DNA from: Escherichia coli
GTDB lineage: Bacteria > Pseudomonadota > Gammaproteobacteria > Enterobacterales > Enterobacteriaceae
DNA: 54,561 nucleotides
Assembly: GCF_003334785.1 (NCBI RefSeq)
Contig: NZ_QOWV01000022.1
Strand: one strand, 5' to 3'
The translations under genes were made by a program, and so were the position numbers. Position 1 is the first letter of the stretch. Every line of letters starts with the position of its first letter. Under the pieces are notes generated by a model, which had not been told where the DNA came from, searched no databases, and worked only from the letters and a program-made list of their open reading frames with translations. Below are positions 1-37,542 of this stretch, one piece after another.

Positions 1-1
1 G

Positions 2-352
2 CGCAATGTCCGGGCAAAATCAGGTTTAAACCGTTCGATACTGGATCAGGGCTGGTATGAAATGCGCCGCCAGCTTGAGTACAAGCAGCTCTGGCGTGGC
101 GGTCAGGTGCTTGCTGTTCCGCCAGCGTACACAAGCCAGCGTTGCGCGTGCTGTGGTCATACAGCGAAAGAAAACCGCCTGTCACAAAGTAAATTCAGAT
201 GCCAGGTATGTGGATATACAGCGAACGCCGATGTAAATGGCGCTCGTAACATTTTAGCGGCGGGGCACGCCGTTCTTGCCTGTGGAGGGATGGTGCAGTC
301 AGGCCGCCCGTTGAAGCAGGAACCCACCGAAATGATTCAGGCGACAGCCTGA
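2..352 (+). CDS. IS200/IS605-family TnpB (OrfB)-like protein, C-terminal part only; 5' end lies before the window start
   Basis: Frame is open from nt 2 (..[29 protein letters not shown]..). The C-terminus carries a CxxC..CxxC zinc finger (CACCGH..CQVCGY) followed by ADVNGARNI, typical of the TnpB RuvC-III/Zn-finger region. Family assignment from memory. Confidence 0.55.
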
Positions 353-391
353 ACGTAGCAGGGATCCTCGTCCTTCAGGGCGTGGAGGATG

Positions 392-1063
392 TCAACAAAC
401 AGGTTGAATTAACTCCGCGCCCTGGTTTTTGACATTACCTACCGCGCGCGATACCGGGTGCCAGGTGAACTGGTTTGCTGGCACACAGCCGTTGGTAGCA
501 ATTTCTGATGCTTCTTTACCGCCAATCTCTTGCCGCATCCATTCCTGTGCAGCTTCTGGCGACAGAACCAGCGGGCGGCGGTCATGAATATCTACCAGAC
601 CCTGGTCTGCTGCTGCAGTGACAATTAAAAATCCTTCGGCTTTGTCACCGCGCTCAAACGGTGTGCTACCTATCGCGGCCATAAAAACAGGTTGTCCATC
701 AGCGCGATAGATAAAATAAGGCTGTTTTTTGTCGCCTTCTTTTTTCCACTCAAACCAGCCATCGGCAAAACAGATTGCCCGACCATGTTGCCAGAGCGGT
801 TTAAACATACGACTGGTGGCCGCAGTTTCTACGCGGGCGTTAATCAGCGGCGGTTTATCCCACCATCCGGGAGCATATCCCCAGAAAACCGGATCCAGAT
901 GAAGGTGTTCATCACGTTCACTGAGCAGAAGAACTTTGGTTCCCGGCGCGACGTTGTATCTGCCAATGGGTTCGGGATCGTAGGGAATATCGCGTTCAAT
1001 ATCTTCCGCGAGAAGCGCAAGGTAATCTTCACGCGTTTGGGATTGGGCAAAGCGTCCACACAT
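392..1063 (-). CDS. yedK: SOS-response-associated peptidase (abasic-site processing protein) YedK
   Basis: 223 aa beginning MCGRF (catalytic Cys2 of the SRAP family); position next to yedF/yedE matches E. coli synteny. Confidence 0.85.
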   Translation of the reverse strand: MCGRFAQSQTREDYLALLAEDIERDIPYDPEPIGRYNVAPGTKVLLLSERDEHLHLDPVFWGYAPGWWDKPPLINARVETAATSRMFKPLWQHGRAICFADGWFEWKKEGDKKQPYFIYRADGQPVFMAAIGSTPFERGDKAEGFLIVTAAADQGLVDIHDRRPLVLSPEAAQEWMRQEIGGKEASEIATNGCVPANQFTWHPVSRAVGNVKNQGAELIQPVC

Positions 1064-1169
1064 AGAAACCTCCTGAGATCATACTGAAAAGAATAGGAGA
1101 GGGGGCGGGTAAAATCTATGTGTCAGAGGCAACGATGTTCCCGCTGTGGGCCACAGCGGGAATGAGGGA

Positions 1170-1403
1170 TTACTTCTGAATTAAATAACGAATGGTCGGC
1201 CCGTCTTGCTGAATATCCAGCACCGTATAGCCGTGATTACGCGCATCCAGTGGAATATTATTGATCGACTGTGGACAGTCGCTCACCACTTCCAGGATTT
1301 CCCCTTTTTTTAACTGCGGCATCGCCTCAAGAGTTGCGACTGCCGGATAAGGGCAGGGTTCACCCACCATATCAAGGCGGTAATCAGGAACGATATTTTT
1401 CAT
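1170..1403 (-). CDS. yedF: TusA-like sulfurtransferase-family protein YedF
   Basis: 77 aa with the CPxP motif (GEPCPYP); 4-nt overlap with upstream yedE as in the E. coli yedEF operon. Confidence 0.8.
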   Translation of the reverse strand: MKNIVPDYRLDMVGEPCPYPAVATLEAMPQLKKGEILEVVSDCPQSINNIPLDARNHGYTVLDIQQDGPTIRYLIQK

Positions 1404-5603: not shown

Positions 5604-7010
5604 TTACTTGGAATTACTGTTGTTTTCGAACTGCTGCGTTAAGTAGCTGCTGGTGCTGTTTAACGAGGTCATTAAAACGTCCAGTTGGGTAAATTGTTCT
5701 TTGTAGCGCGCGACCTGCGCATCAATGCGATCGCTGGCGGCGTTGTAGTCTTTAGTTAATTTATTCAGTGTCTTACTAACGCCATCGGTAGCGGCTTTAA
5801 TAATGCCCGTTGTCGAAAGCCAACTGGTCAGGTTGCTGCCAATGGTGGTTGTGATGCCGGTTTTTTTACCATCGCCAACAATCAATGCACCTACGCCGCT
5901 GGCATCTTTTTTCAATGCAGCGGTGAGTTTGTCGGCATCCAGTTCCAGTTTGCCATCGCTGGGATCGGTCGTGATACCAATCTGCGCCAGCGTTTTATAG
6001 TTGGAAGAACTGACGGTATTACTCAGCATCGATTTCAACTGCGTCTGAATCGTTCGCAGCGTGGAGTCGCCGAGTAGTGCGCCATTGCTAGAATTCTGGC
6101 TATCAGCTCCCGCATCTACGGCGGTGTATTTGGTCAGGCTGCTGAAGGTATCTATTAGCGAGTTATAGGCATTCACCCAGTCTTTAATCGCCGTTTGCGC
6201 TTTGGAGGTGTCCTGAGTGATGGTCAGCGTCTGGTTGCCTGTGGTGACATCGTTCAGGTTCAGGGTGATGTTTTCCAGCGCGTCGCTGATGGTGTTGCTG
6301 CTGTTCTCAATGGCGACGTTATTGACCGTCAGCTGTGCATTCTGGGCGGCGACCGAGACCTCCATGCCGTTGCTGCTGGCACTGGCGTCATAGCCCATAA
6401 AACTTTGTAGCGCATCATCACCGCTGACCGAGAGTGTCATCGCATTGTCAAGGCCGGTGTCATTTGATGTGACTGACAGACGATATTCACCGTTACCCAC
6501 GTTAATGATGCTTGCGCTTACGCCTGCTTTTGCGTTGTTGATAGCATCACGGATCCCGCTTAAAGACGAGTTAGCCGCGCTGATATCAATGGAAATCGGA
6601 TCTTTGTCGCCGCCTTGTTGAATGGTGAGTTTGCTGTCGCTGGTGGCGATCGCCGTTTTTGTATCATCTCTGGTGGTGCGCGTGGTCAGGGTTTGCGCCT
6701 GCGCCAGATGGGTGACGCTGATGGTGTATTTCCCGGCGATGGCGTTACCCGCGGTGGTGGCACTGAACGCGGTGGTGCTGCTGGTGGTGCTGGTGGCGGA
6801 AAAAAGATCGGCTTTAGACAATGCAGTATTGGCGGTCTGGAAAGTCGTCAGCGCGCTTTTCAGCGTACCGTAGGCGCTAAGTTTAGCGGTAAACGACGAT
6901 TGCTGATTTGAAATAGGGGTTAGCGTCGCTTTTTGCGCGGCGGTGAGGCTATCAAGGATTGAACTTAAATCCAGGCCTGACCCGACTCCCAGCGATGAAA
7001 TACTTGCCAT
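5604..7010 (-). CDS. fliD: Flagellar filament cap protein FliD
   Basis: 468 aa, Ser/Thr-rich with conserved termini; divergent from fliC as in enterobacteria. Confidence 0.9.
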   Translation of the reverse strand: MASISSLGVGSGLDLSSILDSLTAAQKATLTPISNQQSSFTAKLSAYGTLKSALTTFQTANTALSKADLFSATSTTSSTTAFSATTAGNAIAGKYTISVTHLAQAQTLTTRTTRDDTKTAIATSDSKLTIQQGGDKDPISIDISAANSSLSGIRDAINNAKAGVSASIINVGNGEYRLSVTSNDTGLDNAMTLSVSGDDALQSFMGYDASASSNGMEVSVAAQNAQLTVNNVAIENSSNTISDALENITLNLNDVTTGNQTLTITQDTSKAQTAIKDWVNAYNSLIDTFSSLTKYTAVDAGADSQNSSNGALLGDSTLRTIQTQLKSMLSNTVSSSNYKTLAQIGITTDPSDGKLELDADKLTAALKKDASGVGALIVGDGKKTGITTTIGSNLTSWLSTTGIIKAATDGVSKTLNKLTKDYNAASDRIDAQVARYKEQFTQLDVLMTSLNSTSSYLTQQFENNSNSK

Positions 7011-18528: not shown

Positions 18529-18604
<76 letters not shown>

Positions 18605-18657
18605 GTTTAAAAGACATCGGCGTCAGCGGATGTCTGGCTGAAAGGCCTGAAGAATTT

Positions 18658-18731
18658 GGCGCGTTAACAAAGCGGTTATGTAGCGGATTGCAAATCCGTC
18701 TAGTCCGGTTCGACTCCGGAACGCGCCTCCA
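18658..18731 (+). tRNA. cysT: tRNA-Cys (GCA)
   Basis: GGCGCGTTAACAAAGCGGTTATGTAGCGGATTGCAAATCCGTCTAGTCCGGTTCGACTCCGGAACGCGCCTCCA. Confidence 0.9.
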
Positions 18732-18743
18732 CTTTCTTCCCGA

Positions 18744-18830
18744 GCCCGGATGGTGGAATCGGTAGACACAAGGGATTTAAAATCCCTCGGCGTTCGCGCT
18801 GTGTGGGTTCAAGTCCCACTCCGGGTACCA
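18744..18830 (+). tRNA. leuZ: tRNA-Leu (UAA), long variable arm
   Basis: GCCCGGATGGTGGAATCGGTAGACACAAGGGATTTAAAATCCC...GGGTTCAAGTCCCACTCCGGGTACCA; the T-stem differs from the K-12 sequence as I recall it by two compensatory changes. Confidence 0.85.
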
Positions 18831-19893: not shown

Positions 19894-21111
19894 ATGCAAA
19901 AATCCTTCCGATTCACCAATTCATCCATCAAAGCCCTTCCGGCAAACACAGATACCCGATCTACAGAGCTAGAGGTATCTGATACCGAAGTTATTGGCCT
20001 CAAATGTCTCTCAGGTCGAACGGGTAACAAACGTTTCCTCCTGCGCTACACATTCCACGGTACCAAAAAAAGTATCAGTATTGGCAGATTCCCTGAAATT
20101 GATGTGGGGACAGCTCGCCAGATAGCTCGCCGTCATAAGGAGGCGATTGCACTTGGAAATGACCCCAAGGCAGAGCGCGATAATTATCGTGCGATGCCAA
20201 CGCTTAGTGAGTTTTTTCACCAGACCTATGTTCCGTTCATCAAGCGCCATAAAAAGTCCTGGGATAAGGATGTTCAGCGTTTCACGCAATACATTGAACC
20301 TCGTCTGGGAAAGATACGTTACTGCGATCTCAGGGCCAGAGAGATACAACAGGTGCTGTTTGACATGCTGGAGGGGCGTATTCACGGGCAGCAATATGCG
20401 CCGTCTACCTGTAACAGAGCCCTTGCTATTCTGAAAACGATGGGGCGTTATGCGTTGCGACAGGATGTGCTGGAAAAGAATGAAGCCGATAAGATCCCTT
20501 TACTGAAAGAGAATAATCAGCGGACGCGCTTTTTTGATGCTGATGAGATCAGGCGCATTCTTGACGCTGCTACCCAATATCCCAACAAAGCTGCCGGGGG
20601 ATTGATAGCCATGTTGTTGTTAACCGGTACACGCAAATCAGAAATGCTTAATGTCAGGCATGAACATATCGACCGGGCCAATCGTACTCTGTTCATTCCT
20701 TATACAAAAAATGGTCGCAGTCGGACGGTATATCTAAGCGATGCCGCATTATCGATTATTGATGCTATCCCACGAGTTGGCAGTAATCCGTATCTGTTCG
20801 CCATTAAGGATAATGGAAAACCGATATCGGAACCCCGGTGGGCATATGAAAAAATACTGGCACAGTGCGGTATAGACAAGAATGAAGTCTGTTTTCACAC
20901 CACACGTCATTCTGTTGCCTCTTTACTGGTTTCGAGTGGTCAATTCAGCCTGTATGACGTTAAAGCACAACTGGCGCATGCGAGTATTCAAAGTACGGAG
21001 CGCTACGCGAAATTGACACCAGAGCGTATGCGTCAGACCGGGCAGGGCGTAACTGACCTTCTTTTGAACACCGTTACTGCCGGTAACAATGATGATTTTA
21101 GCACCCCTTGA
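19894..21111 (+). CDS. Tyrosine recombinase / integrase (P4-like, N-terminal Arm-type domain)
   Basis: Start at MQKSFRF preceded by GAGGA. C-terminal catalytic region has HTTRHSVAS (His-x-x-Arg) and a Tyr in ERYAKL. Same orientation as and just downstream of tRNA-Leu. Confidence 0.85.
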   Translation: MQKSFRFTNSSIKALPANTDTRSTELEVSDTEVIGLKCLSGRTGNKRFLLRYTFHGTKKSISIGRFPEIDVGTARQIARRHKEAIALGNDPKAERDNYRAMPTLSEFFHQTYVPFIKRHKKSWDKDVQRFTQYIEPRLGKIRYCDLRAREIQQVLFDMLEGRIHGQQYAPSTCNRALAILKTMGRYALRQDVLEKNEADKIPLLKENNQRTRFFDADEIRRILDAATQYPNKAAGGLIAMLLLTGTRKSEMLNVRHEHIDRANRTLFIPYTKNGRSRTVYLSDAALSIIDAIPRVGSNPYLFAIKDNGKPISEPRWAYEKILAQCGIDKNEVCFHTTRHSVASLLVSSGQFSLYDVKAQLAHASIQSTERYAKLTPERMRQTGQGVTDLLLNTVTAGNNDDFSTP

Positions 21112-21120
21112 ACGTGGAGT

Positions 21121-21378
21121 ATGAGTATGCCGTTAAAATGTCCTAAGTGTGGTAGCCGAAATACAGTGACAGAAACTGCCGGAAATATAGCAAAGGTGAC
21201 TCGCGATGACCGGTTTCTGACATCGACATCCGGTTATATTAGCCCGGAGCAATTACCAGAATTGCTTAAAGAAATCATCAGGGCGATACAACGTCTCTTT
21301 AGATTCCTTGAACAGCGTGAAAGGAATAATGCGCCAGTGCTGATCTGCAAGGATTGTGGATATTATGAAAGAATATAG
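21121..21378 (+). CDS. Small zinc-ribbon protein (CxxC..CxxC)
   Basis: 85 aa with CPKCGS near the N-terminus and CKDCGY near the C-terminus; GGAG ribosome-binding site upstream. Confidence 0.5.
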   Translation: MSMPLKCPKCGSRNTVTETAGNIAKVTRDDRFLTSTSGYISPEQLPELLKEIIRAIQRLFRFLEQRERNNAPVLICKDCGYYERI

Positions 21379-21471
21379 ATGACCACTGAAGGCAATTCCA
21401 GATTCTTTAGCCTGTCTATGTAACCCCGATACTTAAAACGTATCGGGTTTTTTGTTTATGAGGATTATTCA

Positions 21472-21843
21472 ATGAAATTTGTCTCGAACTGGCAAGACCT
21501 GCCGTCGCTCCTTCTTCCGGAGTCAGTAATGAGTCTGTTGAAAACAGAGCTGGTACTCCCATTTGAAGATGAATACTCTGCAATGAGTTTCTGGGATGAA
21601 GTCGGGGTGACATTAATATATGTCGAGCCCGATGATGTACCTGAAGATATTAAAACGCAGGTATTAAATGTGATTCATCAGTTAATTGCAAATCCAGAAT
21701 TTGTAGTCCGTCTGACAGATGACTATTACCTGATGCTTTCTGTTACGGAAGATAACGGGAACGGTATTTATCTGTTATTTCACCCCGATTGCCCTCTGAA
21801 GGGTATTGATTTATTAATTTCTATGGCCGAATCACGCTATTAA
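21472..21843 (+). CDS. Hypothetical protein (123 aa)
   Basis: ORF with GAGGA ribosome-binding site 7 nt upstream; no motif recognised. Confidence 0.5.
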   Translation: MKFVSNWQDLPSLLLPESVMSLLKTELVLPFEDEYSAMSFWDEVGVTLIYVEPDDVPEDIKTQVLNVIHQLIANPEFVVRLTDDYYLMLSVTEDNGNGIYLLFHPDCPLKGIDLLISMAESRY

Positions 21844-21868
21844 ACACAAGCAAAACCAGGAACGCAAA

Positions 21869-22402
21869 ATGAGTAAATCAAAATTAGTTAAAAATAATGT
21901 TGAGTCAGTTTCGAAGGAGATTAAAAATGAGGCAGAGGTTATTCATGAAAATCTCAGTGCAGATGAACAAACATTATCTGATGTAAAAGACTATCAGTTG
22001 CTCATTGAAACAGGCCAGGCAGAAAAAATCAGTCCTAAGGCAAGTGGTATGCTGACATGGCAACTGGCGATATCAGAGGTGGACAATGAACTTTATCTTC
22101 GTCTGGTGGCAAATGGCTGTGGAGGGTTGTTCTCTAAGGACTGGATCTCACTTTCAAAGATTGCAACTGTTCTGGAAACACAACCTGCTACCGGCTTCTC
22201 ATCCGGAGTATTCAGGCCGCTATTCAAAGGGGCAAGCGCCAACAATGCAGGTTTTCTGGCTGCAGTTTTACGCTCCCCGGATATATGTCTGCTGGAGGCA
22301 CATCCAGAGAAGTTATTTACTCATGTATTATACCCGGACTGGAGGGAGCGGTTGAATAAACTTAATACGATCAGTAGCCAGGAAAAGATTACAGAGGATT
22401 AA
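21869..22402 (+). CDS. Hypothetical protein (177 aa)
   Basis: ORF in tandem with its neighbours on the same strand; no motif recognised. Confidence 0.5.
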   Translation: MSKSKLVKNNVESVSKEIKNEAEVIHENLSADEQTLSDVKDYQLLIETGQAEKISPKASGMLTWQLAISEVDNELYLRLVANGCGGLFSKDWISLSKIATVLETQPATGFSSGVFRPLFKGASANNAGFLAAVLRSPDICLLEAHPEKLFTHVLYPDWRERLNKLNTISSQEKITED

Positions 22403-22474
22403 TTTATTTCCTGCACTGTTATACAACCAGAAATCACCACACACCACTATTTACTTTCTAAAGGAAAATTTATT

Positions 22475-22909
22475 ATGCAAACCCAATATGCCTTAAAACA
22501 GGCAGGATTAACTCTGCCTGTGACTAAAGAATTTCAGCAGCATATTACTACGCTTCTGGCAAATCAGGTTTTACAAAAAATAACTGAGGCAGTGGTTATT
22601 AATTTCCGTGATCCGGACTACAGTGCAGAATCCGGCGGATTTCATCCGGTTGAAATGCGGTTTATCCGTCAGGATAACGAATGGTATTTCGATTATGTCA
22701 CAGACTTTAGTTACATGGGACGAGTCTACCCGGAACTGGAAAAGGAAATGGACTTTTGTTGGTCAGGTCAATACGTCTTCCATTATCTGATTGGGGATAT
22801 TTCACTGGCAGCAGAGAGGAATGAACTCTGGTCCCTGTGGGAGCGTAATTTTATGGAGTATCTCTCTATGGGGATTTACCGGGTAACGGTAACTGTGGAA
22901 AGTTGTTGA
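22475..22909 (+). CDS. Hypothetical protein (144 aa)
   Basis: ORF with AAGGAAA ribosome-binding site; no motif assigned with confidence. Confidence 0.5.
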   Translation: MQTQYALKQAGLTLPVTKEFQQHITTLLANQVLQKITEAVVINFRDPDYSAESGGFHPVEMRFIRQDNEWYFDYVTDFSYMGRVYPELEKEMDFCWSGQYVFHYLIGDISLAAERNELWSLWERNFMEYLSMGIYRVTVTVESC

Positions 22910-23081
22910 CCCGTTATGAACAGGAAGAAAGCGGACGGCTTTGTAATCTACTGCATGTGGCGTGCATCACAGCATGGAGATGATGTCTCTTTTTCCTGGC
23001 TGTTCGCATAAACAAGTGCAGACACGGGGGATCTCAGATCCCTCGTGGTTTTTGCCCCCTATGGAGCATTCTCCTGTAGCA

Positions 23082-23125
23082 GGGTGATAACGGTTAATCC
23101 ATTACCCCAACGACAGTATTACACC
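23082..23125 (+). repeat. Copy 1 of a roughly 45-bp direct repeat (core ATTACCCCAACGRCAGTWTTACACC)
   Basis: Core matches 33888..33912 at 23 of 25 positions, and GGGTGATA lies at identical spacing upstream in both copies. Confidence 0.7.
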
Positions 23126-23210
23126 GGTAATAAATGTTTATGAATACAGTCAGTTATGTGGGTTTTGAGGTGGGCTATATCATCGTTGACGATAACTGAA
23201 GGTTTTACAG

Positions 23211-23438
23211 ATGTATAAAACTCGCGGTGAAAGGATAGCAGAAAGGCTGTGCTGGATATTACTTCAACTGTATACCGGTAATACGGTATCGGTTAATGAT
23301 ATATGTCAGCGTTTCGCGGTCAGTCGCCGAACCGGACAGCGTGATTTGTTGAGAGTTGAAACTGTAACGGAAACTATTTCACCTGGAAGGGTAAGGCTGG
23401 CAAGTTTGATAAGGGAACGAGTTAGACGAAATTTTTAA
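23211..23438 (+). CDS. Small HTH protein resembling the N-terminal DNA-binding domain of WYL-type regulators (possibly a truncated remnant)
   Basis: 75 aa; ERIAERLCWILLQLYTGNTVSVNDICQRFAVSRRTGQRDL parallels the N-terminus of the WYL regulator at 24400..25302; no WYL domain follows. Confidence 0.4.
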   Translation: MYKTRGERIAERLCWILLQLYTGNTVSVNDICQRFAVSRRTGQRDLLRVETVTETISPGRVRLASLIRERVRRNF

Positions 23439-23519
23439 TCGAATCCATATCAATTCTATAAAATATGAAACTTAACGGGAGTAAATATATACTCCCGTTA
23501 TAATGCAACCTTTTTTTAA

Positions 23520-24338
23520 CTACTCAAATGATATTAATTTAGGTACGACAGTGTTTTTATGATGTGTTGAATTTGCAAGATTAATAATATCATGAAATGA
23601 TTTCATGTCGTCGTCAGTGATTTCTACGGCTGGATCAGCTAAATCGGCACAGGTAACATTTAACCAGTGTGTTAATGAATCAATCCTGTTTGAAGTAATA
23701 TATTCAGTGTGACCAACATTCCACTTCCAGTTGATTATCCGAGCAGGTCTGAATCTCACCTCCCGAACCCCAATTGGTGTTACTGACTCAACGAGAGGGT
23801 ATATCGTGTTAAGTACTTTATCATGTTCACTGTAGATATTTAAATGCCCCATTTTTGAACCGTAAGCCATTTTCATTATGTTCTCTGTATAACTTGTTAT
23901 TGGGGTGGCTCCGGCCATAGAGATTGTTAAGAGAATATTATCATTTTTAATATAGGGTAATGTATTGTTTATTAATCGAGTCCCTAAAGAATGACCCATT
24001 ATGATCACATTACGCTTTTCTTTAACGTATATCTCGTTTATTACGTGTGCTAATTTTTCTCTGTTATTAACTGCTGCTTTCGTTGCATTATACCAGGCCT
24101 GACGCGCTTTAAATGGGATGGAGATTGATGACAATAAAGGAGATGTTCTCAGGGGGAAGAGAGTATATAACCCCCACTTGTTCGCTATGTCAGAACTTAA
24201 TATGGATAGTAGATTTGCCGATTCCCATTTATAGTATCTGACATCAAGGCCACACCCTGCTTTAATTCGGTTAAACCATGATATATCATTTTCGGTCAGA
24301 AACCCTGATACAACAAGAAGAACCGGGCATTTTTTCAT
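23520..24338 (-). CDS. Alpha/beta-hydrolase-like protein with GHSLG nucleophile-elbow motif (lipase/esterase-like)
   Basis: 272 aa, AT-rich; VIIMGHSLGTR fits the GxSxG serine-hydrolase motif; immediately downstream of and co-oriented with the WYL regulator. Confidence 0.55.
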   Translation of the reverse strand: MKKCPVLLVVSGFLTENDISWFNRIKAGCGLDVRYYKWESANLLSILSSDIANKWGLYTLFPLRTSPLLSSISIPFKARQAWYNATKAAVNNREKLAHVINEIYVKEKRNVIIMGHSLGTRLINNTLPYIKNDNILLTISMAGATPITSYTENIMKMAYGSKMGHLNIYSEHDKVLNTIYPLVESVTPIGVREVRFRPARIINWKWNVGHTEYITSNRIDSLTHWLNVTCADLADPAVEITDDDMKSFHDIINLANSTHHKNTVVPKLISFE

Positions 24339-24399
24339 GGTAACTCCATTTTTTAGCTTACAAAAATAGCACTTAATGAAAATTATATTATCCGTGTCA

Positions 24400-25302
24400 T
24401 TACGGGGCGTTACTTGGCTGGGTGTAACGTTTCAGTGCGGATTGTATATCTTCAGCAAGTTGTTGACGGATTGAGGCCGGTTGTATTACTTCGACATCCG
24501 GTATCCAGTATTTCATTAAAGGCATTATCTGATCTGTGTGTGTTACACGTGATATCACCAGTAAATCGCCAGACCGGGAAGTATGAATTATTTCCTGTCC
24601 TGGCAATAGATGACGGTGGGTAAACCACGGAGCAACATGTGCGGAAACTGAAATAAGAACTTCGATAAGGTCTTCGCTATACCAGATACCATCTGTCTTT
24701 TCTATTTTTTCATTAATTTCGGGGATTATCCTGAAAGAGATATTACTCATGCAAACGTCTTTGACAGATGAGATAACAAAGCTTTTTAATGTACTGTCAT
24801 GGGCGGCAGCGAGATACCACAATCCGTTGTCATTAACCAGTCTGTATGGCTCAACAGCCCGAAACTCTTTATCTTTGTAATTAAAATTTACTTTCTTCTG
24901 TGACAGGATGGCATAGGATAATACATTCAGAATTGACATGAATGATCCGCAGTTTTCGTATGGACGTTGTTTTATCAGAAACGGGTTGTTTTTCGTGTTA
25001 CCTAACAAAATACTCAGTAGTCTGTCATCCCAGCGAGGGAACAGCCCTTCAATGCCCAGGATGCGCGTGAAATGACGTAAATCAGCATTGCTGCGTTGAC
25101 CGAGAACACCGTCAGACAGGCGATAGCGACCATTTTGTCGAATCAGATTAAGATAGGACAGGCGCTGAGTAAGATCACGACGGATAGTTTTTTCGCAAAC
25201 GTTAAATTCCTCAGATAACTCCCGGACGGCTAGTGACTCACCATTGTTCAGGCGAGTTAATATCAATCCGAGTCGATATCCAAGTTTATCGTGCTTACCC
25301 AT
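24400..25302 (-). CDS. WYL-domain transcriptional regulator (HTH + WYL)
   Basis: 300 aa; N-terminal HTH ([21 protein letters not shown]) and a central literal WYL motif ([12 protein letters not shown]). Confidence 0.75.
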
Positions 25303-25681
25303 TCGTTTATCCGGTTAATGCCAGCGAAGAGGATATTTTCAGCAAAGTAACGGACAGGATGAGTCCACTTTTACTGTGACGGAGAAAAAAATTAACTCAT
25401 TAATTATCAATATATTAAAGCATTGCTGGAATCATCGAATAACATGTGGACTCATCCTGTCCATGTGTATTTTTACGTTCAGGGTGATAATTATTATCCT
25501 GACCTGTACATGACCTGTTTTTGCTGCATATTTGACCATGCACTTTTGCCATCAAGTCGGAGAGGCAGGGGGGAACGTAAGATCCGAAGGTTAGAGAGGT
25601 TATCAGCAATTACAATGATGATTAATATTTTCATAATATCGGAGAACATCATATTAGTTGAAATAACATAAAGGTGGTTCT

Positions 25682-26008
25682 ATGTATTTACATATCAGAA
25701 AGTATCAACTCGTAAATGCGAGATGGCGTGATGTCATTGATCTGACAGATTATGAAGAAACAATCAGTCAGGTTGTCGGTACATTATTTGGAAATGATTT
25801 TATTGAGGTCAGCGTTGAAACAAATTGTTTTATTCTGACAGTAAACAGTACAAGCAGTAAAATACCACACGGCATACTGGTGAATATGGGGAAAAGGCTG
25901 GCTGCTAATCTCCAGAGTATCACCTGTCATGCCATGCGGATCTATCATGTAAATGGCCATCCTGACGCGCGGCAGTTATTTCACTGTTTTGATGCCGATT
26001 GCCTGTGA
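25682..26008 (+). CDS. Hypothetical protein (108 aa)
   Basis: ORF with a strong AAGGTGG ribosome-binding site 5 nt upstream. Confidence 0.45.
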   Translation: MYLHIRKYQLVNARWRDVIDLTDYEETISQVVGTLFGNDFIEVSVETNCFILTVNSTSSKIPHGILVNMGKRLAANLQSITCHAMRIYHVNGHPDARQLFHCFDADCL

Positions 26009-26056
26009 TTAAGCCCCCAACTTCTGTTAAAGGAGTTGGGGGAGATTTAACGGTTA

Positions 26057-28657
26057 TCAGACTGGAAGACAGAATGTCGGATATTTACGGGCTATGATAT
26101 CCATCAGTGACTTCATTCGCGGTGTTACAGAACTAAATTTCATTTGGGGTATTTTTGCTCTTACCGCATTTTTTACATCAGTCACCGTTACTGAATAGCC
26201 TTCTGACGTCAGCCATTCAGCAACCTCTTTACAGGAATAACTTTTTTTATCTTTCAGCATAAGCCCCCATTGGCACTGAGTCAGCGCCCGGAGAAATAGT
26301 CTGACTAAAATATCATCACTACGTTTGCTTCCGACTTTTAGTTTCATATCAGAAAATACCGTCCGGCAATAGAGAAAATCACACCAGTCATCCCAGTCAG
26401 CCAGGGTCTTCAGTGTATGCGTTTGCCGCCAGTCGTCGAAAAGAGAGCGTTGCTGCAGAGCCTCTTCCATATTATCCCATGGGCGGGAAGACATCAGTAA
26501 ATGCCCTTCATTCATGGCGGGCTGTACGGGCTGGCGTTTGAAATCGAATTCCAGATTAAGACGGATATCCTGTTCCCGGGATACCAGATCGCTTTCCGAC
26601 AGCCACATCTCACGCGTTGATATCAACGTACTTCGGGATAACGTCTGACCGGGTAAACGATTAAGGTAAAGATCTACCATATAGTCGTTATAGTCACTGC
26701 GTGGAATATCGGCAGGAGGTTTGACGCCAGCCCTGGCATGAACAACAGGTTTTCCCTGAATAGCTCTATAGGTTAACTGCCCCCGGGTTTTCATGGCGAT
26801 AAGCTGGCTGACCTCATGCTTACATGTCAACATTGATGAACCCGGATCAACAATATCGCACAGCGACTGGAAGCGGGAAGACAGTGGACCGCTCATGTTT
26901 ATCTTGTTAAGTGGGCAATTTGTCAAAAAGCCATCGGTTGTGACGCTGACAACCGATGAATCAGAAGGCAAAGCATTCATGAGTTCCCCGGCAACGGCGC
27001 GGATAAATCCCGTCACATGCGCAGCAAAGAATGGCTGAGTAACCGATGATGGTGGGAGGGATCTGTTTAATCCACGGGCAGTATCAAAGGCGGTTTTGGC
27101 GCGAAGGCCCTGAGCAAGTTTGCCATAAAGCGAGTTGCCAATTTCTTTCCAGAATTTCTCCTCCAGAGAACCTTTAATATGGCGATTACGGTTCTCACGG
27201 ACCTGTTGAACAAAGGGAAGAAACACCGATGTTGATTCGCTGTTATGTGGGGAGGTGTCACAGATCCAGGGGACGATGATCCCATTATGGATCGTCATCT
27301 CTGCCCCGAGCGACAGAGCAAGTTCGATTTCAGGTGCCGTTGCCCATGATTCGCCACTTAATGGAAAGAATAACCCATATTGATCGGTCCGAACCGGCAG
27401 GCTGGGATAGGGAACTGATTCCGGGAACCGAAATGTGACAAGCGCAAATCCCATCACATGCCCACAGTAATCGTCCGGATTTTTACTGAGGCGGATGTTT
27501 CCGTAATCGGGTATGAGGATATCTAATAGCCCGGTGGTATACGCTCCAGCCAGATCGTAGTCATACCAGTGATCAGACGGTGTAACCCCCATCATAAAAC
27601 ACTCATTGCGTCCGCCGTGGTAACAGTTGATCGGGAACGTTTCAAACAGCTCTCTTGAAGGAACACTGGCGGGGTTTTTAATCGTCCGGAATGCCTGTTT
27701 CTCCGTGAGCCAGAGTTCACGGGTTTTAATGTGTGTCCCAAGGCAGACTTCGGGAGACATATTGTTTTCTTTAAGTGTTTTGGTGAACCGTGAAACTGCC
27801 ATCGCCCCGATGGTGGCGGGGACACGATCAATCATCAGCTCCCGGGCGCAAAAATTGCGAACCTGTAAAGCATAACGAACCGCAATCTCGGCATCCCGCA
27901 GAGCATAGGCTTCAAACCCTGCTCTGTCCCCCAGAAGATATTCACGCATATTGGTTATGGAATAAGGTGCAGGAATGGTGAGTTTGGGAAGACCCAGTAA
28001 TTCACCACATTCAGCCAGACCCATACCCCCGGGAGTGATAAGCAGTGTATCGATGAAAGCTACGTTACTGCAACGCGGAGGGGAAGTTCGTTTGTCAAAC
28101 ATTATCTGTTCAGTCTTTACGCGACGTTCCTGCTGTTCATCAAAATCGATACCGTAACGATTTTTGAAGCTGCTGACAGTACCGCGTATTCCTTTCAGAA
28201 GAATTTTGTAGTCTGACCAGAAATTGGCAAAGGAGGCGATATCCGCACGAATGAAATGCGCATATATATTAATAATACCGGGCCATTTTGTAATCACACC
28301 CGTTTCAAGAAGCGGTGTAATCGTTTGACAGAGAAAGTCCTTAAAAGACAGCCGGGATTTTTTCTGTGAGTCAGGTGGATAGATAATGTTCGATATACCT
28401 GTATTATCGGGTAAGACAACATAACTCTGATATGACAGAATATCATTCTGTCGTGTTTCAGGGTTGAAAACATATTCGGTATCAAAACCGATATGGAGCG
28501 TCAGGTCGTTTGAAATCACAGACACGTTTTTTGATGCAGGTGGCATCACAGGATAATCATCAAGCGTTTTAGGTCTTTTACGATTGAGCGCTGGCTCTGA
28601 AGTCACGGACTGATACCCCGAGGCGGCAGCGAGGATATCCTGCAAATTATGGCTCAT
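26057..28657 (-). CDS. Family B DNA polymerase, primer-independent type (piPolB-like), with 3'-5' exonuclease domain
   Basis: Start at MSHNLQD (GGAG upstream). Exo I-like FDTEYV, candidate motif A region YDYDLAGAYTTG, motif B KEIGNSLYGK (Kx3NSxYG) and motif-C-like VTTDGF. Assignment from motif recognition, not a search. Confidence 0.7.
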   Translation of the reverse strand: MSHNLQDILAAASGYQSVTSEPALNRKRPKTLDDYPVMPPASKNVSVISNDLTLHIGFDTEYVFNPETRQNDILSYQSYVVLPDNTGISNIIYPPDSQKKSRLSFKDFLCQTITPLLETGVITKWPGIINIYAHFIRADIASFANFWSDYKILLKGIRGTVSSFKNRYGIDFDEQQERRVKTEQIMFDKRTSPPRCSNVAFIDTLLITPGGMGLAECGELLGLPKLTIPAPYSITNMREYLLGDRAGFEAYALRDAEIAVRYALQVRNFCARELMIDRVPATIGAMAVSRFTKTLKENNMSPEVCLGTHIKTRELWLTEKQAFRTIKNPASVPSRELFETFPINCYHGGRNECFMMGVTPSDHWYDYDLAGAYTTGLLDILIPDYGNIRLSKNPDDYCGHVMGFALVTFRFPESVPYPSLPVRTDQYGLFFPLSGESWATAPEIELALSLGAEMTIHNGIIVPWICDTSPHNSESTSVFLPFVQQVRENRNRHIKGSLEEKFWKEIGNSLYGKLAQGLRAKTAFDTARGLNRSLPPSSVTQPFFAAHVTGFIRAVAGELMNALPSDSSVVSVTTDGFLTNCPLNKINMSGPLSSRFQSLCDIVDPGSSMLTCKHEVSQLIAMKTRGQLTYRAIQGKPVVHARAGVKPPADIPRSDYNDYMVDLYLNRLPGQTLSRSTLISTREMWLSESDLVSREQDIRLNLEFDFKRQPVQPAMNEGHLLMSSRPWDNMEEALQQRSLFDDWRQTHTLKTLADWDDWCDFLYCRTVFSDMKLKVGSKRSDDILVRLFLRALTQCQWGLMLKDKKSYSCKEVAEWLTSEGYSVTVTDVKNAVRAKIPQMKFSSVTPRMKSLMDIIARKYPTFCLPV

Positions 28658-28703
28658 AGTTAACTCCGAAAAAATGCCGGGAGCTGTGTCCCGGCATAAA
28701 GAA

Positions 28704-29342
28704 TCAAGATTTAATAACATTTACTACAGATTTGAAAATATCGGTTTTGCGTGATTCATCATCTGCATGGATAAATGAAACGAGGTTCCTGCCTGCTTTA
28801 ATCAGGATGCCACGTTGCGTCTTTTCCACAGATGGGGTGACGCGTGCAGATAACAGACAATTTTCATGTAACTGAAGAAACTTTTTTGAGGCGTAGCCGC
28901 CATGCAGTCGGGCTTTAATTTCATTATACATATCATCAAGAGAACCGGGTTCTCCTGATTCACTCAATACCGGATAGCCCTTCTTATCAAAAAGGCTGAG
29001 GATAGATTTACCATCATGTTCGAACAAGGTAACACCGTAAATGTATTTCATTCGAAAGGTGAGGGCGTCGGTGGTGTAGATCTCCTCCTGACAACTGAAA
29101 TTTTTGAGACGCCTGGCTAATTCATTAAAAACAGCACGAGCAGTAGCCGTGTCCTGCAGGGTGTAGGTATAAAGTACGAAGCCATCTGTGCCGATGAGCT
29201 TTACTAAGTTGTCCATAATCGTGATAGCGAGAACTAATGCAAAGGACAGATATTTTTCATCGTTGTCTACAGCTGTGCTTGCTGATTCGGGAATAATGTT
29301 CAGTGCATTATTAGCGTTATTTTCCGTGTTCTTAGTAACCAT
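28704..29342 (-). CDS. Hypothetical protein (212 aa) in an operon with the excisionase-like gene and the polymerase
   Basis: ORF between the Xis-like gene and the polymerase, same strand, short gaps. Confidence 0.5.
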   Translation of the reverse strand: MVTKNTENNANNALNIIPESASTAVDNDEKYLSFALVLAITIMDNLVKLIGTDGFVLYTYTLQDTATARAVFNELARRLKNFSCQEEIYTTDALTFRMKYIYGVTLFEHDGKSILSLFDKKGYPVLSESGEPGSLDDMYNEIKARLHGGYASKKFLQLHENCLLSARVTPSVEKTQRGILIKAGRNLVSFIHADDESRKTDIFKSVVNVIKS

Positions 29343-29532
29343 TTATATCACCTTTAAGTTTGTTTTGACGATGTGCATTTTCCCACTCAACAATATCGTC
29401 AAGAGAGAATCGTATAGCCCGCCCAATTCTGATGAAGGGCGGGAGTTTTCCGGGGTTGCGCGATATATCTGACGCAACCGTGGATGCAGAAAGATTAAAT
29501 CTTTCTGCGAACTGCTTAATGGTTAAATACAT
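29332..29532 (-). CDS. Excisionase / AlpA-like HTH DNA-binding protein
   Basis: 66 aa; LTIKQFAERFNLSASTV..IRIGRAIRFSLDDIVEWE is typical of the Xis/AlpA/MerR-like HTH family. Confidence 0.6.
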   Translation of the reverse strand: MYLTIKQFAERFNLSASTVASDISRNPGKLPPFIRIGRAIRFSLDDIVEWENAHRQNKLKGDINGY

Positions 29533-29674
29533 AAACCTCCGGTTTCAGAGAATAAGAAGCCACGCGGATTTAATATCAATCCACATTCTGTGATGACTTA
29601 ATGCAGGGCCCTGCAGAAGCATGCAATGACAATACCGTCCTTAAACGAGTGTTGCATCAATCACGAATCACAGA

Positions 29675-30811
29675 TCATAGGTTCATTTTTGTGTCATAAC
29701 TTTCTATGACCTGAGAAACCACTGCGTGTGATGTCGCTGCATTGTGAAAAGCGTAGCGACGGGTCGCCGTGAGTGAATGGTGATTTAGCAGATGGGAAGC
29801 GATTGCAATATCCCCGGTCGCCTGTAGTATCCGGGTGGCAAAGGTACGGCGCAGGTCATGCATCCGCAGGTTATCAATGTTGGCATCCCGACAAATACGG
29901 GCAAAGGTTGCACGCGGATATGCCAGAGGGCGGGCATTGTCGGTTAGTTGTGGAAAAATGTAAGTTTTGCTGAGCATCAGGTCCTGCTGGCACTGGACAA
30001 CTGCAATGGCTGGAGGTGCAAGTGGGCAGGTGAAAGGGTGTCCGGACTTTGTATCAGGCAGTATGAGTTGATGCATATCCGGGTGCCAGTACTCCCATTT
30101 CAGGGTACATACCTCACCAATACGCATCCCCGTATAAAGAGCAAGCAATATAGAATCAGCTGCCGGTGTTTGCAGCGCTGTTGCCGCGTCAATAAAGCGC
30201 GGGATTTCTGTCGCTGACAGCGTGCGATAGCGAATGTTATTTTCTTTCAGATAGCGGACATGTGACATCGGGGAATGTGTGATCCATCCAGCACGTACTG
30301 CCAGAGAGCATATTTTGGACAATATTGCGAGGATTCGGTTTACTGTTGACGGACGTAATTTTTCCCGTAAGCCAGCAGCATATTGTTCCAGTTCTCCTGC
30401 CGTGATGTCGCGAAGTTGCCGCTTGCCCCAGAACGGGCGAACGTAGAGGTTGAGTTTTGACAACTCTGACTGAGGACTCTTTTTATACAACTGCAAATCC
30501 GGTAGCCACAGGTCATTGATGGCCTGTTCCACAGTGAATCGACGGGACTGAACCGCAAGACGATTTTTATCAGCAAGCAGTTTCATCACATGCTGACGGG
30601 CATCCTCAACGCAGAGCTGAGGGAACTGACCCAGGGTTTCATATATACGCTGATTGTTTATAGTGGCACGAAAGGCCAGCGTGATCCGATTGGGATACAC
30701 CAGAGCACGCAGGTTTTGGCAGTGAATATCACGGTATTCCTGACAACCCGTGAGGGGATGTGGAAGTTGGTGAATTGATTTGTTGCTGAAACGCAGATCC
30801 AGAATAGGCAT
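29675..30811 (-). CDS. Tyrosine recombinase (XerC/phage-integrase family), second recombinase of the element
   Basis: 378 aa; catalytic-domain motifs RIGEVCTLKW, HDLRRTFATR, and a Tyr in TRRYAFH. Confidence 0.8.
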   Translation of the reverse strand: MPILDLRFSNKSIHQLPHPLTGCQEYRDIHCQNLRALVYPNRITLAFRATINNQRIYETLGQFPQLCVEDARQHVMKLLADKNRLAVQSRRFTVEQAINDLWLPDLQLYKKSPQSELSKLNLYVRPFWGKRQLRDITAGELEQYAAGLREKLRPSTVNRILAILSKICSLAVRAGWITHSPMSHVRYLKENNIRYRTLSATEIPRFIDAATALQTPAADSILLALYTGMRIGEVCTLKWEYWHPDMHQLILPDTKSGHPFTCPLAPPAIAVVQCQQDLMLSKTYIFPQLTDNARPLAYPRATFARICRDANIDNLRMHDLRRTFATRILQATGDIAIASHLLNHHSLTATRRYAFHNAATSHAVVSQVIESYDTKMNL

Positions 30812-30954
30812 CGTATTTCTCCTGTAAATGACACTGGAAAAATACGATGTGAGGTTATAGTCTGCCAGTTACAGCTTTCACAGTTCATCAGGTGAAAAAA
30901 CGCAGACTCGGATATAATGGCAACACAATTCCATGTCGCCATTATATTAAGAAA

Positions 30955-32085
30955 CTACAGTTTCATGATCTTGTTCGCTATTTTTTCGAAGTAAACCTCA
31001 TTCTTAAGAAGAGTGATATTGTTTGTTTGAACACCCAGACCACTGGAGGTTGACTGGAAGTTGAGTGAACCACTTATCACTGTGGACTTTCCTGATAAAA
31101 AGGAAATCAACTCCTTGGAAGATGGTGCCCACTCAGGGTTTAAGAGTAATGCAATATAGATATATGTCTTACGAAGCAATTGTTCGATATCTTTTTTATG
31201 CCCTGTAGTGTTTTGCTTACCTTTAATGCAAATAGATTTGATTATGAACTCATCAGGGCTGGTTAAAGGCGTTTTAAACTCACTCAGTGATTCATCGTTA
31301 CGAATGACTTCATAAGGCAGCATAGATAAAATGATCAATGCAATCATTTTAGGATGATAAAGGTAGTTATCACGAATGATTTTTCCTGCCTTCATTGTAT
31401 TGAGCGTTGTTTGAATAAATACAAAGTGATATTCAGAGCAAAAGTAACAAAACACAAGCCAGGATAGGTCAATGGCTGGAATGTTAATATCCTTAGGTAG
31501 TTTGTTTAGCCAGTATTCAGACTTCAAAAAGGTCCTGATTTCAACAGTATATTCATGCATTTTTGCGCTGAAATCAAGCATTGCTACTTGACCTGATTGT
31601 TCCGTAACTGTGTGGTCTATAAATGTTAGTGTATTGCACATTTTATCCAGCGTGTTTTGAAAACAAGAAAGGAGTTCGGCATTATTATTACCATTAACCG
31701 CAGATGAAAGTTCAGTTTTAATAAATGCATCCAGTAGCATACAGATTTCTTTCGGAATTACATTTTTACGGGATTGCTGTGAATAGAAATGTACTGCCAG
31801 TAAATTAAAGGCAGTGCACTCCTTTTTTAACCATTGTTCGAGCACTGGGACGTGCTGAAAAAAATTGATATGCTTAGCAGTAGATGCTGATGGAGATAGT
31901 ACATGAAGAATATCTACAGCAGGCTTCATTTGCAATATTTGATCGGATTCGGTAGTCGTCATTAGTTCCAGTAATTGCTGTTCAGAAAATAGTTTAGACA
32001 GGTGATCAATGTCTTTTTGGTATTGATTAAGTTTTGTTAAATTCCCCGGTATACGGGTTACATTGTTTTTCATTTTCTCGAACAT
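30955..32085 (-). CDS. Hypothetical protein (376 aa), AT-rich ORFan
   Basis: Long uninterrupted ORF in roughly 30-35% GC DNA; no motif recognised. Confidence 0.5.
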   Translation of the reverse strand: MFEKMKNNVTRIPGNLTKLNQYQKDIDHLSKLFSEQQLLELMTTTESDQILQMKPAVDILHVLSPSASTAKHINFFQHVPVLEQWLKKECTAFNLLAVHFYSQQSRKNVIPKEICMLLDAFIKTELSSAVNGNNNAELLSCFQNTLDKMCNTLTFIDHTVTEQSGQVAMLDFSAKMHEYTVEIRTFLKSEYWLNKLPKDINIPAIDLSWLVFCYFCSEYHFVFIQTTLNTMKAGKIIRDNYLYHPKMIALIILSMLPYEVIRNDESLSEFKTPLTSPDEFIIKSICIKGKQNTTGHKKDIEQLLRKTYIYIALLLNPEWAPSSKELISFLSGKSTVISGSLNFQSTSSGLGVQTNNITLLKNEVYFEKIANKIMKL

Positions 32086-32846
32086 AATTTTATCCTCGTT
32101 TAAATTATTACACTGATTTAAAAAGTAGCATGTCGTGTTAGCGAGGTAATCCTAAAACGTGAATGGCAGCAGGGGCAAGCTTGAATCTGCGTAAGGATAT
32201 GGCTTAAATTTAATGGTGTAATCAGTGAGTTAGAGGCTTATAGCCATTTAAATACAATAAGTTATGATGATATGTGGCGGGTGTAAATCGGTTAGTTTTT
32301 ATGTTTAAAATATGAGCGTTGTGAGATTTGAGATATGATGGTTTTTAAATTACATACAAGTTACCCCTGATGATCAGTATTAATACCAGAATGATACATG
32401 CGAGCAGCACCCAATCCTGTACTATTGATGATGACTATACAAGGCTGAAACTTTTAGTCGTATGTTGCCAGGAGGATTAATGTCCACAAGGCCCAGATAG
32501 AATGATTTCTCAGATATTAAAGTTGAAACTTATTAACTATGTGAGAGGCTGATATTTATTCAGTCTCTCATTTGTTTTTATCGTTTTAAAGTTAAAAGGA
32601 AATAAATAATGCCTTCCGCCGATGAATCAATGTGCTGATTTCCCTCAAATCAGCCTCAATACTACCAACATCACCAAAGACTTCACCTCTAATCTCACTT
32701 CGATTTTTCATGAAATTGGTGCTTAATAAGCTTTCTTTTTTTAATGCCATTAATTTTGGTTTTATATCGTTATAGAAATGCTTACGGCTTACCCTGATGC
32801 TATGAATCGAGTAGTAAACTGTTTTATACATCAAAAATATAAGTAA

Positions 32847-33824
32847 CTAGCCGAGAAGATATTCTTTTTCAATGTATTTATATTGAGAGGATTTTTCGCG
32901 TTTCGCCAGGTAGAAAACATGAGGTGCGATGATGGTGGGGATAAAATCCAGTGCTGGAGAGGTTTTGGTTTTTTCTGTTTCTCTTCCGGATTGAAGATGT
33001 TGAAGTACAGAGTATGCAATGCTTAAAATTATGGCGTTACTTATATTATTAATTGCAGTTGGGTAAATATGCAGATTGCTTATCAATTCTGAAAGGCAAA
33101 GTAAAACACCAGTGATGTTGGGTTTTCTGCCAGAGATTGTGGTGCTGTTGAAAATGTGACGATTCTTACGACTTATATTGACAAGTTTATGAGTGCAGAA
33201 CTCTATATGTTCGACGATTTTATCTTGACTATTTTTAATGTATTTTGAAATGTTAGTGATCCGGCCATTCAACGTTAGTTCATCAAGCAATATATCATTT
33301 TTAATATTGCGAATTTCATCGCAATGTTCACATTGAGAAACTATCTCATGTAATACATAACTCGAAGTATTGCGGGGTGACGTTGATATGTAATCTAAAA
33401 TAGAAGGCTCGATTTTGATTTTTTGTTTGTATTTTTTAATGCACTGTTTGATTGTTTTTTGTAGAGTATTTGAGATGTGTTTTTTATATTCTTTTAGAAA
33501 ATCTTGCTCTAAAAAGAGTGAGGAGAAGATCAACTGCTGGCGAGATAATTTAATCTCAGGCTTGATCAATTTAATCCGAAAAACTCTTCCCTCCAACTCA
33601 TAGCTGAACATGGAAGATAAGTCATAGTGGGGTGATAAATGTTCGAGTAACGACATTCGTGTATTCATTAGCCGCTTGAATTTATGGTCAGCATACATAA
33701 GTGTTTTTTTTATTTGCTCATCGTAAAGTGGGCCGATAACGCAATTAGCAATACTCATACTATCCGGAGACCTCCAGTCAACAGGGGAATCACATTGACG
33801 GCCACCATTACAATCAAAGGGCAT
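32847..33824 (-). CDS. Hypothetical protein (about 300-326 aa), AT-rich ORFan; start uncertain
   Basis: Long ORF; first ATG at 33824, alternative ATG at 33758 preceded by GGAGG. Confidence 0.45.
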   Translation of the reverse strand: MPFDCNGGRQCDSPVDWRSPDSMSIANCVIGPLYDEQIKKTLMYADHKFKRLMNTRMSLLEHLSPHYDLSSMFSYELEGRVFRIKLIKPEIKLSRQQLIFSSLFLEQDFLKEYKKHISNTLQKTIKQCIKKYKQKIKIEPSILDYISTSPRNTSSYVLHEIVSQCEHCDEIRNIKNDILLDELTLNGRITNISKYIKNSQDKIVEHIEFCTHKLVNISRKNRHIFNSTTISGRKPNITGVLLCLSELISNLHIYPTAINNISNAIILSIAYSVLQHLQSGRETEKTKTSPALDFIPTIIAPHVFYLAKREKSSQYKYIEKEYLLG

Positions 33825-33868
33825 CAACGTTGCCGATTATGGATCATGTCAGCTTCACACACCAGAAT

Positions 33869-33912
33869 GGGTGATATATGGATCATCATTACCCCAACGG
33901 CAGTTTTACACC
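33869..33912 (+). repeat. Copy 2 of the roughly 45-bp direct repeat, about 220 bp upstream of hsdM
   Basis: See copy 1 at 23082..23125. Confidence 0.7.
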
Positions 33913-34130
33913 ATGGCTAATATGGATGCTATCTTACTAAGATAATTGGTTTTTAGCGAGTGACGAGCCAGGTTGTGTCAGTCTGTCTCATGTCGATATT
34001 ACGGGGATGATGCAAACCTGAATGCTGCGATATTGGCGTGTCAGGGGAGGCATCTTACGGTATCATTTACCGCAATTTTTAAGATGCAAAGCCCTGCATC
34101 GCTAGCTTTTTCTTTAGACCAGGATGATTC

Positions 34131-36837: not shown

Positions 36838-37520
36838 TGAAACTGACCAAAAACGCCCCGCTGACTGAGCGTGAAATCGACTGGCTGGAAGAGGTGCTGA
36901 TGAAGTATGGCAATGATGACTCGGTGCTCTGCTTCTCTGAACTGGATGGCTTTCTGACGGCGATTGTCTCCGGCCCGAATATGATTTCCCCGAATATCTG
37001 GCTCAGTGCCCTTTGGGGGCGGGGTGATTACCACCCTCGCTGGACCACTGAAAAAGAGATGACGCGTTTTGTGGGGCTGTGTTTTCAGCATATGAACGAT
37101 ATCGCTGGCTGCCTGTATGAGGCCCCTGAACAGTTTGAACCGATTTTCAATGGACGTGAGGTGAAGGGGAAGACATATACCATCGTCGAAGAGTGGTGTT
37201 TCGGGTATATGAAAGGCCGGTCTCTGGATGACTGGTCAGCCTTGCCAGAGGCCTTACGTCCCTCGCTGGAGGCGATAGCCCTTCATGGTATCGAAAAGAA
37301 CTTCCCAGTGGTTGAGAAAATGTCACCTGTTCAATTTGAACAGAGTATTACTCTCATTCAGCCTGCGGCACTGGCGCTTTACCAGCACTGGTTGTCGGTG
37401 AGAATGTCAGAGGCATCATCCCGGCCTGTTCCCGTGAAGGGGGCAGAAAAACTGCCCGGTCGTAATGACCCGTGTCAGTGTGGCAGTGGTAAAAAATTTA
37501 AAAAGTGCTGCCTGCACTGA
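36837..37520 (+). CDS. YecA-like protein (UPF0149 domain with C-terminal SEC-C metal-binding motif) embedded in the hsd operon
   Basis: 227 aa; C-terminal GRNDPCQCGSGKKFKKCC is a SEC-C motif; overall resemblance to E. coli YecA as recalled; start shares the hsdS stop (ATGA overlap). Confidence 0.65.
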   Translation: MKLTKNAPLTEREIDWLEEVLMKYGNDDSVLCFSELDGFLTAIVSGPNMISPNIWLSALWGRGDYHPRWTTEKEMTRFVGLCFQHMNDIAGCLYEAPEQFEPIFNGREVKGKTYTIVEEWCFGYMKGRSLDDWSALPEALRPSLEAIALHGIEKNFPVVEKMSPVQFEQSITLIQPAALALYQHWLSVRMSEASSRPVPVKGAEKLPGRNDPCQCGSGKKFKKCCLH

Positions 37521-37542
37521 CAAAGCGGAAGGGGGCTTGCTC

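Follow-up and report, generated by a model that had tools for sequence, protein, structure and literature searches.

The window is a stretch of Escherichia coli DNA of 54,561 nucleotides (contig NZ_QOWV01000022.1), and it opens inside a gene of the TnpB type. Frame 2 of the plus strand contains no stop codon from base 2 until the TGA at 350-352 and encodes 116 residues; yedK follows on the opposite strand, running from 1063 to 392, and beyond it lie yedF, yedE, yedD and amyA. A sequence-only reading had proposed a TnpB-type ORF with a zinc finger and a RuvC-III segment at the start of the window, with yedK next to its end, and both proposals were borne out. The Cys codons of a CxxC...CxxC zinc finger lie at 143-145, 152-154, 200-202 and 209-211, and the third RuvC aspartate (RuvC-III Asp) is encoded at 230-232, within an ANADVNGA motif. 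The window holds the end of the RuvC domain and the TNB part only, and of the RuvC D-E-D triad just this third Asp; translation of this last third of the gene showed no defect. Of the 116 residues that the window has in common with the full-length homologue of K-12, InsQ (402 aa), 3 differ. InsQ matched the Pfam families HTH_OrfB_IS605, OrfB_IS605 (7.8e-35) and Cas12f1-like_TNB (6.9e-23), and aligned with the structures of ISDra2 TnpB of D. radiodurans (PDB 8BF8, 8EXA, 8H1J), homologous over residues 3-376 (E=1.9e-54).

Table 1. Features at the yedK locus and tnpA copies used for comparison (window positions unless a locus is named).
Feature	Position	Strand	Basis or detail
3' end of IS609 tnpB/insQ	2..352	+	residues 287-402 and stop; translation, RefSeq annotation of identical genomes, Pfam/PDB matches of the full-length homologue
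Predicted omega-RNA scaffold, five helices	257..395	+	14-locus alignment, RNAalifold, pair counts with controls
Right-end subterminal imperfect hairpin (H5)	365..386	+	UUCA loop 374-377; T368/T383 mismatch; compensatory change in 4 of 8 pairs
TCAA, right cleavage site, last four bases of IS609	392..395	+	other IS609 copies, empty yedK sites, 14 loci
yedK (SOS response-associated peptidase)	392..1063	-	ORF list, annotations, sequence comparison
Predicted guide segment, CAAACAGGTTGAATTAACTC	396..415	+	empty-site sequences of K-12 and UTI89; published mechanism
tnpA copies compared (all outside the window)	L001 4739-5170; L002 1568-1993; L021 940-1371	- (L001)	

An IS609 copy inserted at the stop codon of yedK

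At least 28 complete E. coli chromosomes are 100% identical to window 1-420, and in them RefSeq labels the ORF beside yedK 'RNA-guided endonuclease InsQ/TnpB family protein'. One of these, NZ_CP024141 (L001), served to extend the sequence upstream (window position = L001 position minus 6000) and revealed a divergent tnpA/tnpB pair. The element is about 98% identical in nucleotide sequence, over about 1720 bases of a 1.8-kb stretch, to copies at the ydcO (K-12), TetR and yfeD loci, part of which are annotated 'IS200/IS605-like element IS609 family transposase'. The IS609 of K-12 (insQ/ydcM beside ydcO; 98% identity over the whole element) has in common with the copy at yedK the divergent tnpA and tnpB, the left and right hairpins, the TTAT left flank and the TCAA right end. 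A first homologue search with InsQ had returned near-identical E. coli proteins only, with no diversity, among the 120 listed, and a scan of the window found no other IS609 ends. We conclude with high confidence that window 1-395 forms the right-hand end (395 bases) of a chromosomal IS609 of the IS200/IS605 family, including its guide-RNA scaffold, and that the copy is likely a decaying relic. It is a known and ordinary element, already annotated as an insertion sequence in public genomes, and nothing in it departs from the known model of its class.

The boundaries were located by comparison of occupied and empty sites. Other IS609 copies matched L001 from 4678 to 6395-6397; in a query across the junction, they matched up to window 395-397, and yedK of element-free strains matched from 396. 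Empty yedK sites (K-12, UTI89) read ...CTCCAGGCTTAT/CAAACAGGTTGAATT... (in short GGCTTAT/CAAACAGG; slashes mark junctions), and the occupied site reads GGCTTAT/CCGGTGCGCCGTAAAACCCC...GGAGGATGTCAA/CAAACAGG, with the ends of IS609 as TTAT/CCGGTGCG...GGATGTCAA/CAAACAGG. IS609 is thus inserted 3' of a TTAT that overlaps the yedK stop codon, with no target duplication. TTAT formed the left flank of five of six independent insertions and TTAC that of the sixth. Among the 14 TnpB loci aligned below, 13 finish with GGATGTCAA and the Rhizobium locus with TGCCAA; all 14 diverge directly after. In a listing from six species, TTAT and TCAA are the cleavage motifs that occur most often in elements carrying TnpB (PMC9956272).

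IS609 has subterminal imperfect hairpins at both ends and no terminal inverted repeats. A right-end hairpin of the IS200/IS605 type had been suggested as a check, and it was found together with the TCAA cleavage site (Table 1); the matching left-end hairpin lies at L001 4698-4717 and likewise has a TTCA loop. As in IS608 of H. pylori, insertion is 3' of a tetranucleotide without target duplication, the imperfect hairpins are subterminal, and cleavage at TCAA on the right falls about 9-10 nt 3' of the hairpin foot (386 to 392-395 in the window) (PMC3201880). The two elements differ at the left, where the site is TTAC in IS608 and TTAT in IS609 at yedK and the distance from site to hairpin foot is 19 nt and 16 nt, respectively; the divergent orientation of tnpA and tnpB in IS609 is a further difference from IS608.

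Because IS609 sits at the last codon of yedK, the stop codon and one extra Cys of yedK come from the element. Minus-strand 392-394 is the TGA stop, supplied by the transposon, as are the last two bases of the added Cys codon. With the insertion, YedK has 223 aa and ends in IQPVC; at empty sites it has 222 aa and ends in IQPV.

Some features of the neighbourhood were noted. Upstream of the window, L001 1926-4600 carries emrE, ybcL and ybcM, which separate fliE from the IS609 copy; an AT-rich stretch comes after these genes and includes a 20-bp tandem duplication near L001 4078-4118. At the corresponding position K-12 has yedL and pseudogenes instead. In K-12, emrE, ybcL and ybcM belong to the DLP12 prophage. 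Within the window, a tRNA cluster, Gly(gcc)-Cys(gca)-Leu(taa), occupies 18529-18830, and beyond it about 20 kb (about 20000-40000) are low in G+C, down to 0.36 at 32-34 kb. Window 1-25000 is covered to at least 80% by only 335 of 5426 genomes. The region beside the tRNA genes is probably a variable island.

Decay of the copies at the yedK site

The source genome of the window is absent from the genome collection, whose closest member is 98.9% identical over 25 kb. To judge the state of the copy we compared four relatives, namely the three closest over 25 kb and L001. In all four, tnpB is 1175 nt long and marked 'frameshifted', and tnpA is marked 'internal stop'. Relative to K-12, L001 has lost 34 bp between CAGC repeats after residue 224 (K-12 insQ bases 673-706), upstream of the window. 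This deletion, which the IS609 of K-12 does not carry, shifts the frame before the RuvC-II Glu (IVIEDL), so that the frame reaching the window is uncoupled from the start of the gene. The sequences of the other three relatives fit the same deletion because their tnpB genes have the same length of 1175 nt. A TGA at codon 96 interrupts tnpA in L001, L017 and L018. The same stop (GR-stop-LRR) occurs in yedK-site copies and in the ydcO-site copy of K-12, and the yedK-site copy of one strain has TTA (Leu) at this codon; the common stop points to gene conversion among copies or to their spread from a stop-carrying master copy.

From these relatives we infer that the genome of the window would carry the same frameshifted tnpB and stop-containing tnpA. 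Since the four closest or identical relatives all have both lesions, tnpB here is probably a pseudogene and the copy most likely an immobile, decaying relic, albeit with an intact RNA and transposon end. The alternative that the source genome has an undeleted tnpB and a working tnpA, and thus an intact, currently mobile IS609, draws on the defect-free tnpB part inside the window and on two other genomes with insertions at yedK: L019, with an intact 402-aa TnpB, and L021, with an intact tnpA. The frameshift and the tnpA stop in four of four best-matching genomes speak against it, as do about 377 records whose identity to the deletion junction is at least 99% (a rough count, since split matches get joined), and we regard a mobile copy as unlikely.

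Other copies at this site have decayed differently. The complete RuvC D-E-D triad in one open frame is broken in the four closest genomes and kept in L019. L020 has a 100-bp deletion between GTGGAG repeats that removes the equivalent of window 282-381, most of the RNA scaffold, and in L021 an in-frame loss has shortened TnpB by 130 residues. In L020 (O157:H16), at about 2500-2626, the deletion fuses the tnpB frame into the right end, and tnpB and yedK are annotated as overlapping.

The full right-end/yedK junction is present at the same base in at least 668 of 5426 complete genomes. Such a wide occurrence, together with a predicted guide antisense to the 3' end of yedK and the flagellar genes that flank the locus, could be read as domestication, in which the host would have retained TnpB and its omega RNA for RNA-guided control (TldR-like or antisense) of yedK or of the flagellar genes nearby. 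However, decay by a 34-bp frameshift, a 100-bp scaffold loss and a 130-residue in-frame loss, all unrelated in type, is not the pattern of a selected function; the intact proteins keep the RuvC Asp and are 98% identical to mobile IS609 copies; and the site is empty in most E. coli, including K-12 and UTI89. We consider domestication extremely improbable. The alleles at yedK look like an old insertion that has decayed along several routes, which argues against a host-selected function.

A conserved, covarying structure over the 3' end of tnpB

A guide-RNA region had been proposed at about 250-390, with a search for conserved RNA structure and comparison with other TnpB loci as the means of checking it. 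We aligned the last 166-208 bases of the elements at 14 TnpB loci, whose proteins are 40-99% identical to InsQ, from E. coli, Salmonella, Klebsiella, Enterobacter, Providencia, Shigella, Pseudomonas, Rhizobium and Streptomyces; the diverged loci were drawn from a tblastn search of plasmids. RNAalifold predicted 32 pairs, 11 with compensatory change. Its long-range pairs (columns 35-40 with 204-222) showed zero compensatory change and were rejected. The structure taken into the tests, RNAalifold minus the long-range pairs plus one hairpin added by hand, has five helices: H1 (257-262/268-273), H2 (279-283/316-320), H3 (287-294/303-309), H4 (336-342/347-353) and H5 (365-372/379-386). The 5' end of the scaffold may extend upstream of 257.

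In this structure 88.3% of cells were paired, compared with 80.0±0.9% in shuffled alignments. Change on both sides occurred in 17 of 33 pairs (6.8±1.5 in shuffles), a number reached by none of 500 shuffles; when partners were slid by 1-3 columns, 4-11 pairs had double change. The clearest example is G262:C268, which has become A:U in 7 of the 14 loci through a synonymous change at the third position of two codons (GCG to GCA for Ala, CAC to CAT for His). Hardly any variation occurs in the motifs GCCTGTGGAG and GAAGCAGGAACC over the 14 loci, and H4 is kept among closer relatives only (68% of cells paired). Between the window and the K-12 copy, three bases differ over 226-395, and all five helices are kept. 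The proposed region thus proved to contain a conserved structure at 257-386, with 17 compensatory pairs over 14 loci, in an element that ends at 395.

The conservation of H5 is by itself no proof of an RNA role, because a DNA site for TnpA would be conserved either way; H1-H3 lie inside the ORF, 75-140 nt from the element end, where a TnpA site is not expected. As DNA, hairpin 365-386 is presumably the TnpA binding site, and as RNA, the last stem of the scaffold. Folded as a single sequence, window 196-395 was weakly better than shuffles (z = -1.9), and the case for the structure therefore rests on the alignment. Conservation of third codon positions along tnpB was dropped as evidence; it is raised over the whole 3' half and is not RNA-specific, and it may reflect recombination between elements; mosaic elements confound this signal.

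The hairpins at 336-353 and 365-386 are GC-rich and fall into the 39 bases that separate tnpB from the convergent yedK, where the insertion has replaced the native 3' flank of yedK. They might therefore be mainly a two-way terminator that gives rise to the RNA-structure signal. Neither hairpin is followed by a T run, however, and no terminator-like site was found on either strand of 1-600; moreover, the hairpins are conserved, with constant spacing to the TCAA end, in loci whose downstream genes are unrelated, and H1-H3, inside the ORF, are too far upstream to belong to a terminator. This explanation appears highly improbable to us.

An omega-RNA scaffold would account for the arrangement of the whole block. 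The block lies on the tnpB strand, overlaps the 3' end of the gene, extends 43 bases beyond it and stops at the right transposon boundary. The omega RNA of ISDra2 likewise overlaps the gene end and ends at the right end of the transposon, with its guide taken from the flank. The end of the conserved block at 257-395 coincides with the point from which the flanks of the loci diverge, as would be expected of an omega-RNA scaffold. Sense overlapping transcripts with a UUCA-loop hairpin have been described at tnpB 3' ends, including in RNA-seq data of E. coli K-12 (PMC4615843). No sigma-70-like promoter was found in window 1-1200; the RNA would therefore depend on transcription of tnpB from outside the window.

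No Rfam family reached its gathering score in the window copy or the related loci. Below threshold, the window copy scored 21.9 with HgcC (RF00062; threshold 50) and 28.1 with RAGATH-18 (RF03064; threshold 44.9), and the best scores among the related loci were 30.4 bits for HgcC (E=0.0022), 29.5 for RAGATH-18 and 26.6 for sot0042 (RF02656; matches in three loci, 18.6-26.6 against a gathering score of 88). HgcC matched at the same relative position, the last ~125 nt, in the window copy and 8 of 13 further loci (21.9-30.4), its 3' hairpin and tail corresponding to CCuCGuCCUUCAGGGCGuGGAGGAuGUCA of the window, at a score below gathering. RAGATH-18 matched the 279-322 stem in two loci (28.1-29.5), its closing stem corresponding to CCUGUGGAG...GAAGCAGGAA, again below gathering.

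Like the predicted RNA in the window, all three families are RNAs at or beside TnpB genes. HgcC and sot0042 are archaeal, unlike the IS609 RNA of E. coli, and HgcC and sot RNAs have in common a UUCA-loop hairpin at the 3' end of archaeal tnpB (PMC4615843). RAGATH-18, the guide-RNA core of IS607-type TnpB (PMC11061315), lies outside the ORF and is reported only with IS607-type TnpB, whereas the RNA in the window overlaps tnpB and is of the IS605 type. We treated these matches as resemblance, not membership. The near-invariant core of the IS605-type RNA, found at window 279-322 and at the same place in L005, resembles the closing stem of RAGATH-18, and IS605-type and IS607-type guide RNAs may have an old core motif in common.

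Among the related loci, L011 (2315-2597; a Shigella sonnei IncI2 plasmid) has a Sok antitoxin RNA match just downstream of its TnpB element. The match, cut by the end of the locus, scored 54.8 bits, just under the threshold of 59; it marks an ordinary hok/sok locus of the plasmid, with no relation to the IS609 RNA.

Predicted guide, target and fate of the RNA

In insertion-free strains, the sequence that follows the scaffold at the occupied site sits directly 3' of TTAT; this sequence runs antisense to the final codons of yedK. With a guide length of ~16-20 nt, assumed from other TnpB systems, the predicted guide CAAACAGGUUGAAUUAAC... would target exactly the empty yedK site of K-12 and UTI89. 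TTAT is inferred to be also the TAM of the nuclease, so that the predicted TnpB target is TTAT+CAAACAGGTTGAATTA (NTTAT+CAAACAGGTTGAATTAAC). The TAM of ISDra2 TnpB is TTGAT, as compared with the predicted TTAT for IS609. The K-12 IS609 lies in the ydcL-ydcO spacer and the window copy at the yedK stop codon; their insertion sites differ, and so, therefore, do their guides. We found nothing specific in the literature on a TAM or RNA of IS609. IS609-type TnpB has been purified and assayed in nuclease screens (PMC12781874), and in the text of that report we found no cleavage result specific to the IS609 type.

These features can be placed in the donor-joint cutting and retention model of the family (10.1101/2023.03.14.532601). 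IS609 would have inserted as single-stranded DNA 3' of TTAT at the yedK stop codon. TnpA would excise the top strand and rejoin the flanks, so that TTAT again adjoins the old right flank. In an intact element, a through-transcript would be trimmed to the scaffold plus about 16-20 nt of flank and bound by TnpB. TnpB with this RNA would cut the rejoined empty site (TTAT plus flank), and recombination or repair with the sister chromosome would restore IS609. The occupied site should be spared from cutting because the TCAA that precedes the guide sequence there differs from TTAT at two positions.

A decayed copy at yedK may still make omega RNA, which an intact InsQ from another IS609 copy could load and use to cut incoming empty yedK alleles (TTAT+CAAACAGG...). 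We consider this very unlikely. If it were true, recombination would be biased toward the occupied allele, and the dead transposon would be maintained as a drive element; the guide could also, as a side effect, be an antisense RNA against the 3' end of yedK.

The comparison fixes the exact right boundary of this IS609 copy at 395 and shows that the stop codon and last residue of yedK are transposon-derived. A further result is a secondary structure, backed by covariation, for the guide RNA of IS609-type elements, an RNA that Rfam does not cover at gathering score. The decay states at one fixed site may offer a small natural data set on the death of TnpB elements.
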